From Catajapyx aquilonaris (Eukaryota), in NCBI GenBank assembly GCA_000934665.2, contig KZ537958.1, positions 62,001 through 126,000 of the forward strand: DNA of 64,000 nt. The letters are read 5' to 3'. Within the stretch, counting starts at the first letter, position 1; each line of letters starts with the position of its first letter. The position numbers were made by a program, and so were the translations under genes. The notes under the pieces were generated by a model that ran no database searches, was not told where the DNA came from, and was given only the letters and a program-made list of their open reading frames with translations. This document shows positions 22,701 through 64,000 of the stretch, piece by piece.

Positions 22701-25700
22701 GACTGTCTTCCCCAACGGTACGATGGTCATCGACAAGGTTCAGCGTAGTCAGGATAGCGGTACATACACTTGTAGTGCCAGCAACAAGCAGGGTCGGACT
22801 GCATCGGGCAGCGTGGAAGTCAGCGTCATGGGTAGGTGTTTCGTTGTTGTGGCTATTCAGATATGCACATGTCAGGCTTCAGTGTCCTTAATGTCGCTGC
22901 AGGTGGGTGCACAAAGTTATTACACAGTTGAAAGACCTTGTGCAACCGTTTCGTGCGACTTTTTTGCAGGATTTTATCACCAGGCGTAGAAATTATTGTT
23001 GTAATAAAATGATCCAAATATTGCAAGGGATGTAGACTGAAAGTTTATAGTTCACGTGCAGAAAAATTGAAAGTATAGCGTATATTTTCGCATATTACAC
23101 TGACCTAAAATTCACGCATGAATCACGTGATACGAACTACAAACTATTTTGTGATCAGGGTTGGTGTTGCATAATTTATTTTGCTGAATAATTGGTCCAG
23201 GTATGCAGTATTTGGATCGCGTAAATTTACGACAGAACATAAATCATTGATAAGAACTGCAATAATTAGAACCTTGCATTAGATGATCAAACAGTATAGT
23301 TTAGGATTGCACAAAATGGTTATAATGCACTTAGTACAAAATTGTTCGTACAATGCTTGCAATAATTTGTACCTCTTGTCTCTTACAGTTCCGGTATTAT
23401 CATTCTATCCATGTGCTTCATAGAATTAAGCTTATTAAATCTCTCTTGCAGAGTGTCACCGGATTAGAACGTCTCATTATAATCTCTCTGTAGATTAACA
23501 GTATATCAATTCTAATTCCATTAAATTCTCTCTTGTTGAAATATATTTAATCCTACTGCATGTGCAATAATCGGATAGTGTCATGCAGGTTTGGTGAAAC
23601 GCAAAATCACTTACATTAGTTTCATCAAACCCGTAACTGTAGTTCAATATCAAGCTAACTCTGCACCACGATTGAAAAGGTTGTGTAAAAATCAATTTTA
23701 ATTTAGAGTATTATATGAATTTTTATAAGATTAGTGCTGCAATATGTAAATACATGCCATGTTTCAATCCTGGTTGCATGCGCATTTTAAAAATCACACA
23801 TGTCCTCATTTCACTTGTAGCTGAGTGACATAAAAATGTTGGTGAGCCGTGAGAGGGATGCCCTGTAACCATGTATGCTGACTCTGGCAACGTTTTCTAC
23901 TCTTTCAGTCCCGCCAAAGCTAAACCCTTTCAGTTTTCGGAGTGACTTACATTTAGGGGAGCGCGTGGGACTCCAGTGCATGGTCAGTAAGGGGGACAGT
24001 CCCCTGGTGATGGAGTGGTCCAAGGACGGGCATCCAGTGTCCGTGCTGCCGGACGTGGTAGTCCGTGGGCTGGACGAATACACCAGCATTCTATCCATAC
24101 CTGCCCTGAAGCAAAGCCACAATGGCAATTACACTTGCACCGCTCGCAATGGGGCGGCCTCAACCTCTTACTCCGCACGACTGTCCGTCAACGGTACGAA
24201 GGTGTCCAGAGGGTCGTTGGTAGAACAGCCAAGCGAGCACAGGCCCGGAAAATGGCGATCCGTATTGCGGGGGTTCAACAGGAAGAAATGTTGCACGAAC
24301 CAACCGGTTTATAATACACCCAGAAAGGTCCCTTGGTGCAACCTTACTTCTACCCGTCTTTTTAAATAAATTAAACAGAGAAAAAAACGGGAATGTTTTT
24401 TTTAAAAAAAAAACCCTCTCAAAAGGGACGCCTTTTCCATTCCGTCGGCTCGCAGTATCTTCACTTTTTTTCCTCCTCGTTGGTCGTTTTCCAAGTCTTT
24501 TCGTTCCCTTTTTAAACAACTTTGGTATACTTCCTTCTATCTTTTCAGTACCTCCTCTGCTCTCGCCCATCTCCTTTGGAGACCTTTCAGAGGGGGAGCG
24601 GGTTCAAGTAACATGTAGTGTGAAACGTGGGGACTTGCCTCTGAATATCACCTGGCTGAAGGACTCCAAACTGATTTCCCTGCATGAACTAGACATCAAC
24701 TTTAGAACCCTTGATGGCTACTCTAGCATTTTAACTATCCCTAGAGTTACGTCTAGACACAGTGGCAACTACACTTGTGTAGCCCACAATCCCGCCAAGG
24801 AGGTCAAGTACACGGCGGAACTGGTGGTCAGTGGTAAAGTAGCCCAACTTCTCTCATCTTTTGCCCTTACTATTACGAAACTATGCTTGCTGTGATGTGG
24901 TAGTACAACATGTTGCATGTCACGGAATGAGATCCTTTCCCACCCACCACCCACCAACCCACCACCGAGGCCTTCAAATCTGCGTCATTATGGGCACGGA
25001 ATCATCAGTCATGCAGGATCAAGCGAGAATGTCTCCACCCACCTCCTCTTGTGCACACTTTGCACCTCCATCATGACGTTAATGGCAATAATTATTGGCC
25101 AACAGCTGTACAGCTCTGTGTTGATGCATCAGTATCGCATAGAGCCGGCTTCCGCGCTTATCAATAATAATTATTATGGCCGTTGCAGGTAATTAGAGTC
25201 CAAGTGGACCGTAAATCCAGTGTAGCCCTGGCAGTTTGCATACATCACTCTGGGCCCATGGGTGCAAACGCCCAAAGTTGCGGGCCAAGCAGGTGTATGC
25301 ACGGAGTTTGATTGATGCCGATACCTGCGGCGAAAAGTGTCGTCACCGTGAGGCAAAATTAACACCTGTCAACATTGCTTGGACAATAATTTTTTTTTTT
25401 CGGGGAGGCATTACTTGATTGCATCCGAGCTTTTACCACACTGCATTTGTTGCATGCTGCATGACCGCACATGATATATAAAGGCGCACACTTTTGGAGG
25501 CCTCGTAGCCTGGTAATTGCATCCACCTTCACTCCCCATAAGAAAGTTGGAACTTACAAAAACCAGTTTTTTACAATTTATTATTGTGATTATTCTTCTT
25601 TCGATGCCCCTTCTTGGGTTTCGTTAGTCCGGTCCATGCACTGATGTGAACGCAAAATGCCCCTGCCTTCAAATCAGGTAAACACGTTTGATTTTGAACC

Positions 25701-28700
25701 TGTTTATTCTCATTCATTCCACTTGCATACAGACTTGACCTGCCAGCCTGGTTTTCCACTGGAACCTAGCAGCAGTATGTGACCTGTCTTGTTTCTTCGG
25801 CCTTTTCCTTGTACTACTTTTTTTTCCTCTCTTCCTCCTGCTCACGGAGAACACGATACATGCACTCTTTATTACGAGAAAGGGATGTGTACTCACAGCT
25901 TCTTAGCACAAATTGACTGACTGACTGATTTGTATGCTGCCGTTTGTCTCACGAGATGGCTTTATTCAGTATGGCTTGCACTGACAAAGCCCCCCTCCAT
26001 CCACCTTAATCAACTTGGAATAATTTCACCCGCATCAAACACATTATCCAGGCCGCTGAATGCAACACAAAAATGATTCATCAGGCTTTGTGCTTTTATA
26101 TTCACTAGTATCTGATCGATTCGGCACATTCTGCTATGCTGGATTTGAATGTGTGTAACTCATTATCCCTGCAATGGTATTAACATACATAATCGAGTGC
26201 CGTTAAAACAGAAAAAAAGCGCAGCTCTGTAGTTTACTGCACCAAAAAGCCTAGTTCAACTTTCAGGGGGAATATTTCCCCCAGTACATTCTCATTTTTA
26301 TGGGCCAAGAGGGGGAGGGGGTAGAAAAAAACATGAGCATCCAGTCATAACATAGCTGCGCAAATAATGCTACTTTTGGGAATGACATGCACCTCTGCAC
26401 CTGAATGATGTGTGGGTTAATGGATAGCATTTGCAATTGTCACAGTTCCCCCCTCGTGGTTGGTGGAGCCGAAGGATCAGAACGTCAAAGTGGGTCACCC
26501 AGCCGTTTTGGACTGCCAGGTGGACGGCTTTCCAAAACCTATCATTGCATGGAAAAAGGCATATGGTGAGTCCTTACCGTTTAGCAATTTCCAGCAGTTC
26601 AACTTATAATAACCCGTTACAAAGTAGGTCTTCACGTCACAATTCATGGAGAGGGATAAAAAAAAGAGAGAGATAAATGAAAGGATGCCGCAGAATTTAC
26701 TTTTTGCAGAAACCGGCTCCATCTGCTTGATCCTCAGAGTCAGTGGGAAGAAGACAGATAGGTTTTAATAAGGAGGCGTTGGAAGTTGCCTCAGTAAATC
26801 ACTTGCGATTAGAGCTCCCGAAATCTCTCCTCCGCGCTTTGGGAGGGCGGGGGGGAAGTGTTAGAAAAAAAAAAATCCCCCGCCGCTAAAGAAACTTAAT
26901 TGACCAGAAATTTATTTGCACTCGGCTTCTACCCGGGGAAAAACCGTAGGCAACCAGCCGGGTCAATACCACGACCTCCGCTCCCAAAACTCTCGCGTCA
27001 AGCTTCTAAGCAACGGGTCTCTCTGGTTGCAACGAGTCAGCAAGGAAGACGAAGGCCAATACTTGTGCGAGGCCGCCAATGGCATCGGTGTCGGAGTCAG
27101 CACCGTCGTCACTCTCACCGTCAATGGTGCGTGCCACTCTTTGTTACTACATAACGTATTGCTGACTTACCTTTTCTCGTGTGTGAGCAGCTCCTGCGCA
27201 GTTTGTGGTGAGATCTAAGAAGGAGCTGGTTAAACGAGGATCAGCTGCACATTTGAACTGCCGATCTACTGGTGATCTGCCAATCACGATCACCTGGAAG
27301 AAGGAAGGGGTCAGGCTTGAACCAGCCTTGTTTCCTAGGTCTGTTTTCTATTAAAATTATTCGTTGAAGTTCATCCTGACTATTCAAGGTAACCCTCCAG
27401 TCAGCTCTGAGCAACGGGTTGCAATGCTACAGGGTAATTTTACAGCCTTGGAACTACGCAACATGTGGCTCAGAACTGATTGGAGGGTTGCTCTGAATAG
27501 TTAGGATAAATGTGTAAGATTCGCATTGTTTGATGGTTGCTAAAAGTGGCAACAGTGGGTAGAATGGCAACGGTGTCCTTTTTGCGTCTAATGACCCTCA
27601 TCCTTTTCCCCACAAAAGCCATGCATATCCGGGCCAAAGCCATGGATTCTCGTCTCCTAAAATGGCCCGTGTAAATGGATCTGCCGCTATTTTGAGGCAC
27701 ATTCCAGCATTATTAATTCACAGATATGTGGTAAAAGAGACGCCTATGCAAGGAGAACTAATGTCTGAGCTCATCGTAAGCGCCACTAAAAAGGAAGATA
27801 GTGGAACCTTCGCCTGTTTGGCCACCAACGCCTATGGTCATGCTCAGATGACGATACATCTTGTAGTTCAAGGTTAGTCGACACTTTTAAAATCCGCACT
27901 AATTAGAGCATAGATTGTTGAAGTTCCTTTTTTTCCTAATTTAACACTATGGCTTCATCATGGTAGCCACCAAGGACATGTTCCGAACTTTTCCTTCCAG
28001 CTACTATGCCATTAATTAGCAAACTAAAGAGCTTGCTTTAAGCATCTATCTCCCTTTATGCTTTTTTTTTTCAGATGCTCCGACTTTTCCGACCAATCTT
28101 CGCGTTCTGGATCAGACGAGTCGTTCCGTTCGAATTTCGTGGACGCAGCCTCAGGATGGGAATAGCCCCATTACCAAGTACCTTGTTCGCTTCAAAGCCA
28201 ACTCAGGTAATGGAAGCTCATGTTTCTCCGCTTTTGCATGGAACCAGGATGGGAGGAGAGAGAGAAAAAAAAGGGCAGCCAGTTACCCCCGGAGGGGCAT
28301 GGCCCTCTCGGATTCCCAGATACCCAGTACGAAGAGCATTGTTCAGTTCAATTAGCGGATTTTCAAGTGCACTTGTTTGGTCAAAACCTGACCAAATTAT
28401 ATGTCAACATTCACGCGTGCTGATGAGCGTTAGTTCAGCTAATGAACTAGTATAATCCAATTAATTTGTTTCCATTCGCGGATGGGATAAACAGCTGCCA
28501 TTGTGATTATACAGAAACTCTCGTGTCAGGTTGAAGTCAATTTTGTGTAAGAAGTGCAATGACATGTCTTTTGGCAGGTTAATGTACTGTTTACATACAC
28601 ACGTGTGCAGTAACACGCTTACTGCTAACCGGTAATCAATTTATACGTGAGGTTGATGAACACTCTCCAGCCTGTTCCAATTATTTGACAGGCATAAAAT

Positions 28701-35926: not shown

Positions 35927-35988
<62 letters not shown>

Positions 35989-38900
35989 GCCGTTATCATC
36001 ATGATTCAAGTGTGCGGCCGCACAAAGCAAGGGTTATTGACAAATGCGTGCGCATTATGATAATTAGAGGACGTTTCATTTTGACATCTAACTGGCTATG
36101 GCATGAAAAGTGGCACTTGATTGCAATAACAAAGGTGTGCCGGTGTTGTAGTAATAGAGGGTGTTTAATTAACATGCATTGTTAAAATAATTTAATTTCG
36201 TGGGATTTCATATGCTAATTTTGAAAATGAGGTAAAACTCGAGTAAAACAAAGAGTTTCGAAAACGTCAATGAACCTTCACTTCCGGAGATCACCATGAG
36301 GGGATTTATTGAATTTAATTAATTCCGATCAATTTCACATTGCTATTCTTATTCTTATACACATTTTTGCTCATATCTCTTGTACATGATGAAGGAAGTG
36401 GGATAAGGTATGAAAATAATGCTCTCTTTAGGAACCAATATAAATGGTAGCAGACAAAAATCATTTATTGGTACAGGCTATGATTGTGTACTCGTAGTTG
36501 ACTTAAATAGACTTCATTGCGCTATTATAGTACAAATCACGCAAATTTAATAAAATTTCTAGATCGTGAAACTTGCTTTTATAGCCATCTAAATTGAGAT
36601 GATACAAATGGCTTCTTATGGATGAGAGATTTTCGTCCTGTTTATTCTGTAATACATGTGAGCGTCGTCCCTTCATAATACTGGATTTGTAATAAGCTTA
36701 GCCCTCCATATGCCCCAGACCTCATTTTGTGAACCTCCCCCCCTTTTATAACCACCGATCTTCTCTCCTCCAGCCAGTAATATTGCAACTGATATTTCCT
36801 GGACCATAATTTTATTAGTCCAGCCCTTATAACCCCCAGGCCTCGCATCATTCGAACTCGGCAAAGCACATCCCCGCACGTGGGGACTTTTCTTCGCCCC
36901 AAATGTGGATAGCGCCTCTCCCTTTCACTAATGGACGTCGTATCAAGCTAGGATTGCCCCCACAAAACGGGGTTGCGATTGGCCCTTCTGTTTTCCTCTA
37001 GGAAACGTGATTTCGCACAAAGTTAGACTCGCAGTATCCATTAGCTGGGACATTTGGCACAGTTTTATGGCCTAATGGAAACACGGATGTGCAGTAACAA
37101 GATCTGGAAAAGCACTGCAGGCGTTTTTCTCTCTCCCCCCATATATGTTTTAGCTCCACAATATTTTATGCAGCTATATATCACCATGTACTTTTTTTTT
37201 CCTCTCCCTCTCCTTGTACAGTGCCTACAGGCCCCCTGTTGCTTCACGCCTCATCTGCAAGCACGACCAGCGTTCATTTGCAATGGCGTGAAGGAGACGA
37301 CGGGGGGAGTCCCATCCGTGGATTTATCTTGCACTCGAAGCCAGACGGAGGGGAGTGGGAGGAAATTCGGTTGGATCGACACCAAACGGGCCATGTCCTA
37401 ACTTCGCTGCAGTGCGGGACACTCTACCACTTTTACGTGACGGCCTTCAACAAGATAGGCAACGGGGACTCCAGCGAAACGGTCAGCGTCCAGACAAAAG
37501 GGGCCAAACCTGGCAACCCGGCCGCCAGCCAGTTCCTTCAGGTCAACTCCACCTCGGCTCTGCTGCATCTCAACACTTGGCCCTCTGGTGGATGCCCCAT
37601 ACTCAAGTTTGGGGTGGAGTACGCCGAGTATCCTAAGAGTGATTGGGTCTTAGGTGAGGGTCATGGGGAAACCTACTAAAACTGGTTATATCATCTGACT
37701 GTTCCACTCGCAGATTCAATATCACCTACCACTTTTTATAATAATAATAATAATATGTGCAGTAAATGCAGAAGTAGCTGATCAGTTAAGTGCCAAAAAA
37801 TGCTCAAACTGACACGTCAATGGGACGTCAGAGAAACCAGACATATTATGGTGAACGGACAAGTTTACTGAGCATTTAAATTCTGAGGCTTACGTAAATA
37901 CCGTCTGCTCCTTTCTAAAAATTCAAATGAGCACCCTAAGCTCACATATTTGCATTTTGTTGTAAAGGATAAACTTTCTTTCCAACTTTATGGGCTGCTT
38001 TAAAAAATATATATTACGAGGCAGTCGTGTGTCATCTCACAGCTCGTTGCTTGCAATATATTTGAACGCGGATAGCCATATAGCAGCATTTGAGGTGATG
38101 GGTTTTCATGCCTGCTTCTTTTCATGCAGTCGGGAACAATATACAGCCTGACAGAACCCTTCCCATCACTGGGCTTAAACCTGCAACGCTGTATCGACTT
38201 CGAGTTGCAGCCACCAACAGCGCCGGATCGACGCAAAACAACTACGATTTCACGTCGCTCAATCCTGGAGGAGGTGACCTAATTTGCATTTTCTATTTTG
38301 AATACTTTTCTGTTTTGCTTATTAACTAACATGTGCATATAAGAGAGTAATGGAATGCCGTGAATGTGGGGATTATTGCATTCTACATATTATATACTGC
38401 AAAGAAAATCGCTGTGATCGTCTCCTTGAAGGTACATAGAGTGAGAGAGTAGGCCTACTCATCAACGATCCATTAATGTTTTCTTGCGTCATAGTTATTA
38501 CAGTCGTTAATATTTGACGACAATGCCGAACATAAAATCGTTGAGAATTATAGCCTGCTGGTAAGTGAAGGCAGCGACAATATTGCTTCGGAAGGGGAAT
38601 GGATGTTTTCCAGTCACTTACTGTATATGATTATGTTATTTATTAATTAAGCAGCCTGCTTTCTTTCTCACGTTTACCCTTTTTATTAAGCTGATCCGGG
38701 CTACAAACTTGCGTGTCTTTAAGCTTGAATCATATCGATACTTCTGACGTGAGACAATATTGTGATTGGTCCTTCTCTAGAATGTAAAAATGGACTAGGA
38801 AACTCCAGAGGGTTTAATTATGATAAAATGTGTCTTTACTTCATGATTGTAATTTGACAACACCAGTCTCATCTCCTAAAGAATGTTGAAAATCTGGCCA

Positions 38901-41900
38901 CTAGTGGAATAATATCATGCATTATACGCTTGCAAAACACCGTGTTTTCAAATAAACCTCCACCTTCTTGACAAAACATGCTGAAAATGCAGGATCCAGT
39001 AAACGCCACCCCCAATTTAGCATAAAATGAGAAATAACGGCCCAAACGAGATCAATTTCCAGCTGGAGAACGGCCCCCTAGGCACCCACACCTCATGCAA
39101 ACCCATACATTTCTCTTTCCCTTTTTTTTATAGCCACAGTTGTTCCGAGTCAAGTGATAACCGGATCCGAAGTAGGAACTCCATTCTACAAGGACGTAAA
39201 AATCCTGGTTCCCTCCGTGGTGTCTCTGATCGCCATCCTCCTGACCGTGATGGGTGTCTTCCTGTGCCTTAGACGAAGTGAGTGTCAGACATCCCCAGGC
39301 TCCTCTCCTCACGCTCAATAGACGGCATGTTCTTCCTCCCTTTCCTAGGGCCCTCTCACAGCTCAGCATCCAACCTACAAGACGCCCAATCGGCCGCTGC
39401 CCTAGACAACAAGCAAAACATGGCTCAACGAGAACAGTACTACGCAACAATGAGGAAGCCACCACCTTCGCCTGTCCACGACTTTTCTACCCTGGAACGA
39501 ATTCCGGGTACAGTGCGCCTTCTTACAAACCGATCGCAAAAATACAGTAGGCCCCCGACTTACGTAGTTTCGACTTACGTAGCATCGACTTACGTAACCT
39601 CGACTTACGTAGCATCGACTTACGTAGCATCGACTTACGTAGCATCGACTTACGCAGCCTCGACTTACGTAAAAATTTCGACATGCTTTAAAATCTACGG
39701 GATTTACACAGCAAGCCTGTACAAGACAGATATTAAAACACTATTTATCGGGTCTTCGATCCTGGCTTACCATTTGTAAATCTTTTATTAACTATAACAG
39801 ATGCCACGGATCCGGGATCGGGGACCTAGAAAAAGTGTTGTGATTTCGGAATAATGGCTCCGAGTTATGTAAAATTCGACTTACGCATAAGGTTGCGTAA
39901 GTCGGGGGCTTTCTGAACCTCAAAAGTGGGCGTTGAAAGGAGTGGAGGAATTGGCAATAGATGTAGGTAGGATAGTGACGAATGCTCTGGTCCCTCAGAA
40001 TACTCGGAAGACATTTACCCGTACGCCACGTTCCACTTGCCGTCTTTAGCAGAGGACGGCTCGGGAGGCAAGTTGGAGACGTTTGTTTACCGAGACCTGC
40101 ACATGTCGGGATGCGAGTTGTCTCCAGGCCGGAAGGTAATTGTCCAGGAGCCCTACCTTTTTTTTCTGCCTTTGCAGCACCCTCTAAAGCCTTAAGGCTA
40201 TCGATCAAGGTTCGAACCTCATCTCCCTTAAGAGGATGGGGGAGGAGCAAACGCAAACTTGCCAGTACCAGCCCCTCTCTCTAGGCCTATAATGGAATGG
40301 AATTGCCGGTAGACTGATTTCCAGCCGACCAGTGGATAACTTTCTTTTCCTGCAGGGAGAGCAGAGAGAGAGCTTTTGCTGCTGCTTCGCCAAATAAAAC
40401 GAATGGACCGTGCAAAGGATTCCGTGGAGGAGAAATGCACTGTGGGCGCTTCATTTTCAGGGGATTAGGTTTTAAATGTTGGCCGCCGAAAAAGCTCGCG
40501 GAAAATGCCCCGTGGAATTACGTTTTATTTTTCTGGCGTTGTTGTTTCGCGGTGTTTTGAAGAGTTTGCTAATGTGCATTGCGGCCTGCTTTTTTGTGTG
40601 TGCAGGAGATAAACTGTCGTGAACTTAACGAACCGCCAGTCTTTTTCCAAGCATTACTAACTTTGAAATCGATTCCTGCAATCTGTCACCGACCTGCCTT
40701 TTCTCCAACACTCTTTTCCGAGTCTATAACACTCCACTAATTCCCCCTGCAGGAATTAAACTTTCAAGCTGTTGCCTTGCCCCCATTTTGCGAATGCTTC
40801 TGTTTGAGAATAATTAGCAAGTTATTAATTTTCGCCTCTGCCATTCGCCCTATAAAACAACCGTGGTAGCATATGGCCTAGCAGATTTAGAGCACACTTT
40901 TAATGTGCGGATTATTTTTTTGTAAACTGGCAATGTGTGCTCCTTGCCCCTATTGTGCATTGTGTTGTTGGGCTGTGCTTCTCTTCCTGTTTTCTCTCTC
41001 TCGCGGTGGCCAGCAGTCTTGCAAGGAGACGGCGGCGGAGTACTGTCGTGTGAAGAGAGGCCGGTCAGTGGGCAGCAGGTCAGGGAAGAGCCTCCTCAAG
41101 TCGGAGAGCGAGGAGTACGACAGCCTGGGATCGGATTCGGGGACGGAGCAAGGCACGTCCAGCCGCACAGAGTCTTCCAATCACCTGGACGGGGGGGACC
41201 TTCTTCACGCAGCCACCACCACCACCACAGCAGCAGTTCAGCATCACCAGCACCAGGCCTCCTATCCGCCGCCCCGGGTCTTGCATCACAGTAAGTCACA
41301 AATCACATGTCATACAAAAAGTTTAAAAACCATCAATGCTGCTGCTGCTGCACTCACTCTTATTGGCTCGGATGACCACTTTTTGGGGTCGAAATTTTTA
41401 TCCACACATTTTTTGGTGATCCGGGGCGGTGGAGGTGAGCTGATGCTGAGTTTGCTTTCTTTGCTTGTGCGTGAGGTGTGGATTGTTGTCACGCCACAAG
41501 GCACAAAGTACAGGTGTAATTGAGGAACACAATACTGCCCCCCTTTTATGGGGCATATCTTTACAAAACGCATACTAATATTAATATAAGCACATTTTTT
41601 GGGGTTTCGTAACATCATCAGTCTAATGCACCAATGTTATCGTTTACGCCATATATATTCTACTGATATAAGAAAAGGTAAGCCAAAAAAATTGCAGTCG
41701 TAATCTTTGGTGTCAGCTGATATTTTCTTCCATTAATATTGGAAACCGTACTGTATGTTTTCTCTCAAATGTCATGTTTTTGCAAGTGTTTTTGTGTGCT
41801 ATTAGCTTACAGCAGGGATATTTATCGCCATAGTTTGTACGCTTAATGTGGGCTGAACAAGGAGCAAAGTGGGACCGTTTCCCAAAGGGTGTGTGATGTG

Positions 41901-44203: not shown

Positions 44204-44434
44204 ATATGGAATCAGATTTTACTGATATAGGCTCGATTTTTCCTTTGTGGACATTCAGTATTAATTTGTTTTTTAATTGCTATATGTGTTCATAGAATCG
44301 TGATGCATTTGAGCCCTATAGTAGTGTGTCGTTAGTATTTTTTAAACAACAAAGCATTGCAATAGCTTAATATGCTTTTACTTTATTATCCTTTTATTAT
44401 TTTACAAGCTTTTTATAAATAACTTCAGTTTCAC

Positions 44435-44480
44435 GTTGTTGTTGTTATTATTATTATTACTATTGTTATTATTATTATTA

Positions 44481-44517
<37 letters not shown>

Positions 44518-44537
44518 TGTTATTATTATTATTACTA

Positions 44538-44569
<32 letters not shown>

Positions 44570-44600
44570 GTTATTATTATTATTACTATTATTATTATTG
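44435..44600. repeat. Imperfect (TTA/TTG)n microsatellite
   Basis: direct reading. Confidence 0.97.
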
Positions 44601-47600
44601 CAGATGTTGTTCTGCGTGGAGATTGTCTGCTGCACTTTTGAATTGGCTTACAGTGCATGGAAGCGCCCTACACATCAAGTATGATCAAAGTTCTGCCTAT
44701 TTCAGGTGAGTACAGTAGATTACCTAATCATTCTGCCATAATACTTGCGTAACTTTGGGCTTACTATTTTACCTCAATATTTCATAACTGAAAGCTTATT
44801 CCCACTTCAGATTTCAATATAACATCGAGAGTTTTGAGGATAAGGGAAGTTAATGAAATTGTGAGGAATTGTGAGAGGAAAATTAGAGTATATTTAAGAG
44901 ACAAAATCGCGCTACAGTACAGTACATTATGTCTTATATTACCATGATTGCCATTAAAATGCAAAATATAATAGTATTGTTGTCTTTCTGTTGCATTTTT
45001 GAGTGCTTGGATCAGTCTTAAAGCGGACAGAATTTGCTGTCATGTCGTAGCTTGATAATTTCAAGCACTCTACAGAGAAAGGCTAGTGGTTACACTACCT
45101 CGAGCAGACTTCACCTATACCGAAGAGTAACTGATGATGTATAGAGAAATGTCATGTCTTCCACGTGTTCCTCTTTGGATTCGTATGTGATATCTTATTA
45201 TTTTAAATACGCTACGCGGGACTTTCTTTTGTGCGTTTGCAGGGCAACTGCACGTTTGTTTTGTGGGCCCTTAACTTTCCTGCCGTATATCTCTTATTAA
45301 ATAGTATTTTTGGCCCCTTGGTCGCGTGAAATATTTGGTAACACCCCTATGAAATTAATTCTGACAGGCTCAAAAGCTGGCTCATCGTATATTTAGGTCA
45401 GACAATGATGAAAACCTCACTGATGATAGCCACCAATATATTATTGATGTGACTCTGTATCATCCATTGCCTATACTGACTGTATAATTTAAAATAGCAC
45501 GCGGCATAGAGCGAGAATTGAAGCCTCTGTAACGTTCATTAAGTGGGGGAACAACATTTTAAAACGCAAAACCTGCTGCACTAAGCCTTATAATTTTGCT
45601 TGGTTCGTTTGTACTAAGGTCGAGTAAATAATTTCCTTGATAATCGCGGCTCTCTAAAATAGAAATATTTTGTCGTAGTAGGACATATTATCCAATTTCC
45701 ATACGTCTATAGAGCTGATGAGAACAAAATGTCCTAAAAGTGGGTGCACAAACTTTGTCATTATTGCGACTGTAATTGCAAAAAATATTCAATTAATCCA
45801 GCCACGCGGATATCCTCTGGGTATATCCACATATACATACTAACATCACTAGCAATGTTTTTCTTCACAAATTACAATTAGGTTGCGGATTTCATTTTTA
45901 TATTCCCCAGCATGAGGCTTTTTTTTAAAAGCACAGTCACACAGTTACAGTGCAGTGTACAATTACAGAGGAAAGAGAAACACTGTAGCTCCTGTGTGGA
46001 ATGCAGTTTCGATCTGTAGCGTAAAAATAGCAGATACTGTAGGAGTCAGTGCTGCTGCTGCTGCCGCTGCTACTGCTGGACCACAAGCTCTCGGTGAGAT
46101 TAGCATATTCCACAACCAGCGTTTCACGTCTCCGCTACGAGGAGGCTCTCTCATTTTCACTTGAAAAGACAGTGCCCCAAACCAGAGTGTCGTAGAACAC
46201 TGCAGCGGGCCAAGGCTCAGCTGACAATTCTCCAAAAGGCCACTCAGCATACATTATATGGCACGCCTCGAGCAAACTCGTAACGTTCCAAAAGCGGACA
46301 TCTGACTGACCCCAGACGACTCCTATTCGTCTTTGTCCTACCTTGTCACTTGCAGTTCTCTCGCATTTACTCACTGCCTACCATGCCATGAAAACCTTTT
46401 ACAGAAAATTTAGTCACCGGTGTAAACTCCCGAATAGAACCTTATTCTATTCGGTATTCACTACATTGATGCTATATCCAGCCTCCCTAGTGATTTTCAG
46501 GGGAAAGGGAACTCAATTCGTCAGAGATCTTCCCTGACATTCACAAAGTCCTGGGTCCCGAAGAGGATGATAGATGAGCAGGCATGAACCGGAGCAAATG
46601 CATCTTCCCTTAACCAACACTGTCGTCTATATGGAGAGTTACAACCCAGCGATTCTCAAAACTTTTCTCCTTCCCTGGGATGTAACTTATGTCCCACGTA
46701 ATTTGTCAGAGTTTGAAGCAAAATTGGCTGGTTTGCACCTCTTAACACGCTACAGATTGAAAACTTCAGGGGGGTGTAACTATCGACTTTTTTATATCAT
46801 GGGCGTTGAGTGGCCGTGTCAACATCTGCTGCATTATTAAGTGCTGAGGAAAACTTTTCTTTCCGTTTGCACTTTGAAGAGAAATTAATGAGATTATGTC
46901 CGGGAGAAAATAGTGGCTTTGTTACCTTGAAAGCAAAGTTAGACTCTCTGGAGGTGTGCTCCTGAACGATCTAGGTTTGCGAGGCCAGCCGCCGAGGGAA
47001 GGCAGACATATTGTTGGGGAAGCCCGGAATGACAAATGCGCCCCTGCCATGTGTGAAGAGAGTTTATCTTCGTTTTGCTCTGAAAGCTCACCCCCCAGAA
47101 AAAGGAGGCGTGAATAAGGGACCGTCCGCGACTCATTTTTGGCTAGTGCCTGGTGCCGACAAGTTTAGGAATCAACTATGATTGCCAGATGGGAAATAGA
47201 TGATGTTTGTGGTACAGTTTGGTGCACAACTGTACCAGATTGAAATTTTTTTGGCATGTTAAAAAGTGCAAAGCAGTCTCCTCCACAGTTGAGTGTAACA
47301 CTATTCCAGTCCAATCAAGAAAAGCAATGTGCATCTGAACCGATTTGTTTGCATTACTTTCAAGGTCTTCTCCCTATCCATATTAATATTTAAAGCGTCC
47401 GTATATGTCGCAAACTCCATTCCCTTTGGCAAGCAAGGTCGGATTCAAATATAAAACTCCGGGACAGATTTCCCTAGTGATACAAGCAAAATCGACTCCT
47501 TTTTTTTTCTTTTCCCCACTAAAGAAAGGAGAGTAAAAAAAAAGTGCAGTTTTTCCAAGAGTCAAAGTGCCAGCCGTAAATTTGCAGAGCCTTGTGGCTG

Positions 47601-62000: not shown

Positions 62001-62803
62001 TGCTTCCATTGCGTCTAAGCTATTGAGAAAACCAGCGATAATAGCTGAGACTTTCTGCTATCTGATTTCTCCTCCATTTAATGATTTAAATGGCAAAGTA
62101 GCTCCTCGGTTTGCGTTGCTTACAAACGCGGATGCCAAATGCGTAATGACTTCTAAGGAAATTGGTGGAGGAGGTTGTCAATACCAGGTTTCACATCTTT
62201 CTTTTCGGGAAGCAAAATGAGCAAAGTTTTCTCTTCCCGTGTTGTCTGCTCTTTGCCATAATTGGCTTCGGTCGAACTGGGGGTGCGGGGGGTAGGAAGT
62301 TTCCGATGCCAAATGGAGGACACATTTCCTGAGAACCTAGCAAGGAGGTGGAAGTTTGGAGAAAGTATGAAAATTCCACAATGAAACCTAGAGCCGGCAC
62401 CCAACTTTAATAATTGGAAAAACCCCACCAGCCTCTCTACCTCCCTGCGATTATTTCGCTTTCATTTTGAAGAGGCGTGAAAATTGAAAGGAAGCAGTTA
62501 ACAAGAGTAGGAATATATACATTCCCCCCCCCCTCTCTCTCTCTAACTGGTTAGAAAAATTCGCGAGTTAACTCAGGTGCAGTAACTAGATAATGACGAT
62601 GCCGCGTTTCCTTTTTTGGATAACTCGCCCGCCCAGAGAGAGAAATTCCCAGCAGGAGAGAAAACTCATCAGTAGTCAAAACAAGACAGGTGGATATCTT
62701 CCCACAACCTCGGAAATTTCGCCTTGTATCATTAAAAGTCATACACTGCATGAATTTGCAACATTCCATATTCATAATTTCCACAAACAACACTTAACGC
62801 GTA

Positions 62804-62871
<68 letters not shown>
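62804..62871. repeat. (TAT)n microsatellite
   Basis: direct reading. Confidence 0.97.
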
Positions 62872-62872
<1 letters not shown>

Positions 62873-64000
62873 GTGGCACTGTAGGTAGCTTCCTGGTATG
62901 AAAGTTAGCAGGCTTGAATTCATTGGCCTGTTTTCGATTGAAAATGGGATAAAGGGTACTTTTACGGATCGTCTGACGTTGCTGGAAAGAGCGATTACAT
63001 GGCCTGTACTGCATGAAACAGTAACCATTCGACCAAAACTGGGGAAATAGAGGGGTCTCCTACATTTGAGGCCAATAAAAAAAAACGAGGCTCAGGATGG
63101 ATGGGAACCGAAAACCGATGGAAGCAAAAGTGGTTTCTCCCTTTGTATACCTCTGTATCGCATAACCTTCAGCTCCCTTTCGACGTTTTTTGAGCTTTTG
63201 ACGTGAGTAGCACTACCCTCTGAGAATTGATTTCACTTCAACTAGGATGACTCAAATCACATGAGGCGGTGGACAAAGAGACTCACAGGAACTGTCCACA
63301 ACAATTTAGTCATTTGCATTTGGTGCTGAACGACTCAATTCTGAATCATTTGTGACAGTTTGGTCAATTCTGATTAAAATATTAACCCAGATATGCCTGA
63401 ATTATTTTTATTTAATTTTTAAAAATATTTTATGAAGAAATAAAGAACTAACACAATTGAAAATCTAACAATTGTACAAGTGTCCTACATATAGGACGCT
63501 AGTTTATTTTTTGATTTTGATTTATGCACCTGGAACTGCACATTAGTTTTGTACAATATAAGTTTTGCCAAAAAGACCATTTGCAGTATGTAAGGGACAT
63601 GTATCCTTGTGATATACTGCTCAGGCGATGTTACACTGCTATGAAAGAGAAGAAACTTTCTTCTCCCTAAATCGCTTCTTAGCATAAAAATACATTATAC
63701 ATAAAGCGTTTTCGCCCCCCCCCCCCCTTTTTTTCTTGGCTGGATACATGTGGTTTTCTCAGCGGGGCTGGATAAGACGGCAGACTTTGAGCCCCCTGAA
63801 GTCTCCTGATTGGTGTGTTGAGACGAGTTGAAGTGGAAGCTGCGAGTTTTGCTGAAAAGACCCCCTGCTGCCATGCTTGGACTGTTCCTCCACCTCCTTT
63901 TGGTATAGTTTGTGTGTTGGATGAGGACGTCAACCCATCTCTGGCGAGGTTTCATTTTCAGAAGTGCAATGCCGGCCTCCACCAGAACAATGCAAACGGG

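Follow-up and report, generated by a model that had tools for sequence, protein, structure and literature searches.

A nested long-range hairpin between the alternative Ig7 exons of a Dscam2-type gene in Catajapyx aquilonaris, tentatively read as a splicing clamp

We analyzed a 64,000-nucleotide (nt) stretch of Catajapyx aquilonaris DNA (GenBank assembly GCA_000934665.2, contig KZ537958.1, positions 62,001 to 126,000 of the forward strand), hereafter the window, with all coordinates counted from its first letter. The window carries a Dscam-type gene with two alternative Ig7 exons, A and B, and the intron between them is predicted to fold into a nested long-range hairpin. As judged from the folding models, this hairpin is a real structure, which exceeds chance expectation and is robust to the context in which it is folded. 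An earlier interpretation made from the letters alone (the sequence-only reading) had cast it as a device excluding joint use of the two exons, and our results support that interpretation in part. We tentatively regard the hairpin (24233–24453) as a clamp that would disfavor A-to-B joining by steric crowding, by occlusion, or by both, and give this reading somewhat less than an even chance.

The predicted fold comprises the following elements, where p denotes pair probability.

24194–24548, plus strand: the A–B intron, 355 nt, GT...AG.
24233–24453, plus strand: the core nested hairpin domain, formed by helices H1, H2, and H3 plus small helices (24242–43 with 24442–43 and 24265–67 with 24420–22), p 0.94–1.00 in three contexts.
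24233–38 with 24448–53, plus strand: helix H1, 6/6 Watson–Crick pairs.
24247–61 with 24426–38, plus strand: helix H2, 13 Watson–Crick pairs and two 1-nt bulges (U24253, A24258).
24269–75 with 24412–18, plus strand: helix H3, 7 pairs, one of them G–U.
24281–96 with 24336–51 (24281–24351), plus strand: the inner hairpin H4, 13 Watson–Crick pairs, 1 G–U pair, and 2 mismatches (A24286/A24346 and U24289/C24343), with a 39-nt loop; its segments have p 0.72–1.00.
24352–24411, plus strand: an A/T-rich part of the domain that follows H4 in the 3' direction and shows only weak local pairing (p 0.28–0.40).
24194–24232, plus strand: the 5' end of the intron, a purine-rich stretch for which context-dependent outer helices with the pyrimidine tract (24480–24528) are predicted.

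All four nested helices (H1–H4) lie where the sequence-only reading had put them, both in the sequence itself and in the RNAfold minimum-energy structure. H2 has exactly the 13 Watson–Crick pairs and two single-base bulges described for it. The description of H4 was right as to the helix and its place and lacked the two mismatches and the G–U pair, just as that of H3 lacked its single G–U pair.

The fold was computed with RNAfold in three contexts, namely the 355-nt intron, the 925-nt stretch from exon A to exon B, and 1301 nt, and the mean pair probabilities of H1–H4 are between 0.83 and 1.00 in each of them. Both the intron and its core fold better than shuffled sequence. The whole intron reaches −98 kcal/mol (z −2.9; 1/100 shuffles as good, and 1/282 in a second run), and the core, folded as 24228–24458, reaches −73 kcal/mol on the plus strand (z −4.53; 0/200 shuffles as good). 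Pairs with p > 0.9 that span at least 150 nt number 39 in the intron vs 4.0 ± 6.0 in shuffles, none of which (0/282) reaches 39. As a native control we used 269 other 355-nt segments of the same 64 kb, where 39 such pairs are reached once and 20 are reached by 15 segments. The total energy corrected for GC content is ordinary, with a residual as low in 33/269 native segments; the unusual feature is the well-defined nested long-range fold, not the total energy. The sole other matching segment (39990–40344, GC 0.52) belongs to the 3' part of the gene and has 46 long-range pairs. The only Rfam match to the intron, the bacterial RgsA on the minus strand, scored 22 bits against a gathering score of 88.4 and was dismissed as chance.

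The gene occupies the plus strand of the window, with Ig exons from ~7940 followed by FN3 exons, a transmembrane segment, and a cytoplasmic tail to ~41300. The exons that bear on the hairpin are as follows.

23909–24193, plus strand: exon A, an A-type Ig7 exon of a Dscam2-type gene, 285 nt, phase 1; acceptor ...tttcag/, donor G/GTACGA.
24549–24833, plus strand: exon B, a B-type Ig7 exon, 285 nt, phase 1; acceptor ...ttttcag/, donor G/GTAAAG.
26446–26565, plus strand: the constitutive exon that comes next, with the first half of Ig8 (VPPSWLVEP...), to which either A or B is expected to be spliced.

The pair is located between Ig6, the second half of which ends at 22831, and Ig8, the first half of which starts at 26446. 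Each of the two exons encodes a complete Ig7-type Ig domain with the pattern VPPxLxPxSF...GDxPL..W...GNYTC, the translation being VPPKLNPFSF...GNYTCTARN...SVNG for exon A and VPPLLSPISF...GNYTCVAHN...VVSG for exon B. The exon A protein is 59–69% identical to named insect Dscam2 proteins (Anabrus, Blattella, Gryllus, Timema, Ladona, Ischnura), and its identity is 59–69% to A-type vs 39–49% to B-type exons of the same proteins and loci. Exon B shows 64–68% identity to the B-type exons of relatives in one comparison and 55–68% across all proteins and loci compared. Each exon is nearer to its own type in other species than to its neighbor, and in Ischnura Dscam2 isoform X2 an A-type Ig7 is joined straight to VPPSWIVEP. 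A metagenome scan yielded 23 loci, in 15 of which the A–B intron was measured; the loci without a measured intron are single exons (L010, L013, L016), arrays (L019, L020), or weak partial hits (L021–L023). The order A-type then B-type was observed in P0001–P0005, P0007, and L001–L007, and is conserved in insect Dscam2. The identification as a Dscam2-type Ig7 pair is thus borne out by the equal length of 285 nt, the same phase, the Ig6 and Ig8 flanks, the type-specific homology, and the conserved A–B order. Neither the protein searches (best identities 69, 68, and 68%) nor the 23 metagenome loci contained a close relative of this gene.

Since the two exons are of equal length and phase, an mRNA with both would keep the reading frame and evade nonsense-mediated decay, so that exclusivity needs a mechanism acting at the splicing step; we infer that it is enforced during splicing. 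The donor of exon A, GTACGA (24194–24199, plus strand), is suboptimal, starting with GTAC and having a C at +4. GTAC at the A-type donor is shared by the window and 14/15 measured loci (L001/2, L003–7, L008–17), L018 alone having GTAG, and looks like a conserved weak donor.

The putative acceptor signals of exon B follow the hairpin directly.

24460–24464, plus strand: TTCAC, which holds the candidate branch point (A24463) and is alone in matching yUnAy within the 200 nt before exon B; the A lies 85 nt before that exon.
24464–24546, plus strand: a long tract rich in pyrimidines that leads up to exon B (76% pyrimidine over the last 100 nt of the intron) and is interrupted by an AG at 24494–95.

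The TTCAC motif with its A at 24463 had been correctly placed by the sequence-only reading, which had also described the tract as long, as it is. The linear distance from the donor to A24463 is 269 nt, i.e., not below the ~50–60 nt used in the field as the steric limit for the donor–branch distance, according to the available sections of two papers (PMC7969005, PMC13762713). With the core folded, this path shortens to ~50 nt (39 nt, the helix, and 10 nt). In Boltzmann samples, the path from donor position +6 to A24463 is 39 steps vs 264 along the chain, and in the 1301-nt context the donor-to-tract distances are as short as with the intron alone.

In the mechanism that we propose, the ~220-nt hairpin would loop out most of the intron and hold the donor at 24194 ~50 nt from A24463, the sole branch-point-like motif before exon B. 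The purine-rich stretch after the donor would thereby be placed beside the exon B pyrimidine tract. Crowding of U1 and U2, occlusion of the tract, or both would then disfavor A–B joining, and each exon would be joined to the common Ig6 and Ig8 instead. Here we infer that A24463 serves as the branch point, that the fold forms in vivo, that the two exons are exclusive in Catajapyx aquilonaris, and that the effect of the hairpin is inhibitory.

Several observations speak for the clamp. The fold, rare as it is, occupies precisely the one intron, of 355 nt, in which a clamp would have to operate. A24463 lies 10 nt beyond the base of H1, with 85 nt of pyrimidine-rich sequence behind it, and this arrangement resembles by analogy the layout of distant branch points in other exclusive pairs (PMC7969005, available sections). 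A further argument comes from a diverged relative represented in the one RNA run with a match, X1 (share 0.36), by six contigs, five at 90–95% likeness and one at 95–99%. One of these contigs provides a nearly unchanged region.

24434–24833, plus strand: a near-identical block in the X1 relative, with 1 substitution and 5 gap letters in its 400 nt, seen in one contig.

The 3' arms of H1 and H2a fall within this block, as do TTCAC, the tract, and exon B, and we count the near-constancy of the helix arms together with the branch-point-like motif and the tract in favor of the clamp. Exon A of the same relative differs at 20 of 286 positions, and 11 of the 15 differences listed are synonymous. One contig covers exactly 23908–24193, and the contig ends at 23908, 24193, and 24833 fit the exon borders, although contigs cannot prove splicing. 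As an observation in its own right, exon B and the preceding 115 nt are nearly unchanged while exon A differs, so that the synonymous sites of exon B look frozen in this one contig of one run; this suggests either constraint at the nucleotide level (regulatory RNA or protein sites) or recent gene conversion.

The A–B introns of orthologous and paralogous loci differ widely in length. The shortest ones were found in P0004, where a 222-residue read-through open reading frame on a 1043-nt contig has 12 codons between A and B, implying a 39-nt intron, and in L001/L002, where the intron is 52 nt long (L001:1502–1553) and a CUCAC lies 24 nt from the donor of L001. Both 39 and 52 nt are too short to splice and below the quoted steric limits, and closeness of the donor and the branch region is thus a recurring state of the A/B pair. 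It is conceivable, though on the whole unlikely, that exclusion was ancestrally secured by such an unsplicably short intron (39–52 nt), which grew sevenfold in the Catajapyx lineage by self-folding sequence, with the clamp keeping the A donor and the B branch region close. Longer introns are the following.

P0018: A–B intron of 120 nt.
L018: A–B intron of 605 nt.
L003–L007 (4 distinct sequences): A–B introns of 1013–1170 nt.
L008–L017 (3 distinct sequences of a more distant type): A–B introns of 1159–1164 nt.

In the introns longer than 1 kb (L003–L007 and L008–L017), the first ~100 nt and the last ~90–120 nt are almost invariant (0–3 variable columns per 50), while the middle has 4–15 variable columns per 50, a large indel in L007 aside. 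The invariant 3' end of L003–L007 contains a local hairpin that takes in the acceptor AG. Conserved ends of this kind point to regulation at the ends of the long introns, not to a hairpin. A candidate closing helix in the ~1.1-kb introns (nt 5–25 with nt 1047–1067 of L003, p 0.56–0.96; p 0.5 in L007) proved no better than shuffles (z from +0.6 to +1.5 in the pre-specified test and from −1.2 to −2.2 in a wider one) and was discarded. Support by RNAalifold in the long introns was likewise rejected, with changes on both sides in 2/332 pairs among 4 sequences. A prokaryote-genome scan returned two loci (L024, L025) on contigs filed under a Dysgonomonas metagenome-assembled genome (MAG), each with four arthropod Ig7-type exons, the last of which is cut by the contig end in L024. 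These arrays have introns of 30–56 nt plus one of 151 nt, and are host arthropod DNA binned into a bacterial MAG.

A series of results weighs against the clamp, beginning with its geometry. The path of ~50 nt coincides with the steric limit instead of falling clearly under it. The sequence-only reading had expected the donor to come within ~50 nt or less of the branch point: the ~50 nt are reached through the core, whereas the further shortening would depend on an optional outer helix, H0 (24198–205 with 24455–62; 5 Watson–Crick pairs and 3 wobbles), which gets p 0.00 in each of the three contexts and is thus unsupported. Compaction is moreover generic, as an equally short donor-to-branch path occurs in 91/195 dinucleotide shuffles (14/195 if a site at 24515 is taken instead). 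The AG at 24494–95 sits 31 nt after A24463 and leaves an AG-free zone of only the last 51 nt; a conventional scanning model would take this AG and not the one at 24547–48. If a non-consensus branch point were used within the last 51 nt, the core-only path would be ~100 nt by the folding model, and there would be no steric block.

The X1 contigs, which speak neither for nor against exclusivity, run unspliced across 24193/24194 and 24548/24549; they contain no splice joints and give no cover of the Ig6, Ig8, and Ig9 exons or of 24203–24433. Among public gene models, A is joined straight to B in the full-length P0001, P0002, P0003, and P0009 and separated from it by 10 residues in P0005; P0008 is the only model with A alone. 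Since the public models disagree, they cannot confirm exclusivity outside Drosophila. The models with A and B in tandem are named as Dscam2 in Anabrus, Blattella, and Gryllus and are unnamed or hypothetical in Timema and Dryococelus; they probably represent alternative exons annotated as constitutive, while real double inclusion is possible.

The remaining objections also support an explanation nearly as likely as the clamp, namely that the hairpin is a neutral, lineage-specific inverted repeat (a palindromic insertion, a duplication, or an old foldback element) in an intron grown from a short ancestor, with exclusivity provided by Muscleblind-type proteins and weak splice sites. On the minus strand the core folds just as stably (−78.1 kcal/mol, z −3.88, 0/200 shuffles as good), so that it is a plain inverted repeat at the DNA level and bears no mark of selection specific to RNA. 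In the X1 relative the middle of the intron has not been conserved: 24203–24433 is too diverged to align at 90%, and the 3' arms of H2b, H2c, and H3 are changed in the 30 letters visible at the 3' flank. Orthologous introns of more than 1 kb have no significant counterpart of the hairpin. No significant end complementarity was found in the orthologous or paralogous introns of 605–1170 nt (z from +1.6 to −2.5; −1.2 to −2.2 in L003–L007 and ~0 in L008–L017), and in a pre-specified test of pairing with the sequence that precedes the last yUnAy, no intron gave a significant result. Because these introns lack significant end complementarity, the Dscam2 family does not need such a hairpin. Within the window itself, the segment at 39990 has an equally well-defined long-range fold, and the choice between 10A and 10B in Drosophila is regulated by a protein, Muscleblind (Mbl), according to the available part of PMC6357765. 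A neutral origin is in turn opposed by the rarity of such folds (1/269 segments), which makes the chance of one landing in the 355-nt intron ~1 in 100, and by the position of the 3' arms of H1 and H2a inside the strongly conserved block. In addition, apart from poly-A/T matches the 64-kb window holds no second copy of the intron, and no terminal duplications at the hairpin were seen by eye.

The outer helices lead to a different alternative, which we consider improbable: the clamp may lay 24199–24232 on the exon B tract (24480–24523) and hide both the tract and the spoiler AG, so that A is the default and a trans-acting factor opens the duplex for B. Masking of this kind would set the choice between the exons, not their exclusivity. 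With the intron folded alone, the purine-rich 24199–24232 pairs with the exon B tract at p 0.74–0.97, and the short donor-to-tract distances persist in the 1301-nt context. Only this outer extension is strand-specific, the whole intron having z −2.9 on the plus strand vs −1.33 on the minus strand, and the first 70 nt of the intron are complementary to the last 160 nt well beyond chance (z −4.4, 0/500 shuffles). In Drosophila, 10A acts as the default exon, and use of 10B depends on Mbl (PMC6357765, available part). However, when the intron is folded with its exons (925 nt), the pairings between the purine-rich segment and the tract fall to p 0.22–0.29, with exon A competing for the tract. The 5' partner is only ~77% alike in the X1 relative (hand alignment of 30 letters) while the tract is conserved, and purine-rich and pyrimidine-rich stretches pair easily by composition.

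The same compaction might also have the opposite effect. Stems in introns can help splicing, and the core-only path of ~135 nt (39 + 95 nt) is a comfortable splicing size, so the hairpin might shorten a grown intron and promote A-to-B joining or clean removal inside the larger Ig6-to-B intron. We regard this as very unlikely: the product of A–B joining would be a protein with 11 Ig domains, a form other than the one reported for Drosophila Dscam2 (PMC6357765), and splicing is impossible for the orthologous introns of 39 and 52 nt. Least likely of all is a system of docking and selector sites like those of 14-3-3 zeta and of the Dscam1 exon clusters 4, 6, and 9, in which the hairpin arms would compete with complementary sites in the flanking introns. 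The best duplex with the downstream intron (24234–24273/25225–25321) has −37.7 kcal/mol vs −33.6 ± 1.8 in shuffles (0/18 as good), but it is long and much interrupted, and was compared with 18 shuffles only. The duplex with the upstream intron is unexceptional (11/30 shuffles as good), the helices within the A–B intron retain p near 1 even in the 1301-nt context, and the scan of the flanking introns revealed no docking site with one selector per exon.

Elsewhere in the window, long trinucleotide runs are found at 35940–36000, 44420–44640, and 62800–62890; one of them is an in-frame poly-Asn right after the coding exon at ~35950, and the others are intronic or flanking. Assembly gaps (Ns) occur near 2100 and 32300.

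Dscam2 Ig7 isoforms give neurons cell-type-specific recognition, and the hairpin with its distant branch point is a concrete candidate for how the use of one of two in-frame exons is guaranteed. If the clamp reading is true, the Dscam1 exon-17 principle extends to a second Dscam gene, and the hairpin shows how a lock of this kind can tolerate intron expansion; if it is false, the hairpin merely adds to the inverted repeats found in introns. On the less likely view that the intron grew by self-folding sequence from an unsplicably short ancestor, Dscam2 exon 10 would gain its first mechanism based on RNA structure, and the case would exemplify a steric splicing lock that limits the growth of an intron and outlasts it. 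The comparative observation that the A–B intron is unsplicably short in some lineages is new here, as our literature searches found no paper stating it for Dscam2.

Drosophila Dscam2 has the orthologous alternative Ig7 pair, 10A/10B, with the A-type exon likewise upstream of the B-type. The two are mutually exclusive, Muscleblind repressing 10A and selecting 10B (PMC6357765, available part), and the published control, unlike that proposed here, is thus exerted by a protein. The words "steric" and "secondary structure" have 0 occurrences in that paper. Full-text literature searches found no paper on an RNA-structure or steric mechanism for Dscam2 exon 10, and no explanation of how the use of one exon only is guaranteed in Dscam2, the searched literature describing only the choice made by Muscleblind.

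Unsplicably short introns are a known means of exclusion, as between exons 2 and 3 of alpha-tropomyosin. In Dscam1 exon 6 of Coleoptera, more than 45% of introns are shorter than 50 bp (PMC8042237, available part). The 39 nt of P0004, the 52 nt of L001/L002, and the 30–56 nt of the L024/L025 arrays are similar in this respect, whereas the 355-nt intron of the window is spliceable unless folding or another factor prevents it.

In the vertebrate OGDH exons 4a/4b, mapped branch points 25–46 nt from the donor and a very long pyrimidine tract enforce exclusivity (available sections of PMC7969005). The window resembles this system in its presumably exclusive exon pair, a putative branch point far from the acceptor, a long tract, and a stable predicted hairpin around the branch region, and in both cases intron growth threatens the mechanism. 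However, the OGDH branch points are near the donor along the chain, whereas the putative one in the window is 269 nt away and would be brought close by the predicted fold, and the window tract is interrupted by an AG.

The remaining comparison is with exons 17.1/17.2 of Dscam1 in Drosophila. A 2013 article by Yue et al. (RNA Biol 10:1822) reportedly deals with steric hindrance and RNA structure at these exons. Steric hindrance is said to be combined there with RNA secondary structure and a distant branch point (PMC7969005, available sections). The window gene differs in being Dscam2-type, in that the alternative exons encode Ig7 and not a transmembrane segment, and in that the introns are non-homologous and the fold described here is computational only. 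What the two systems have in common is an exon pair of a Dscam gene, presumably exclusive in the window, separated by an intron that combines RNA structure with a distant branch point, both of them predicted in our case.

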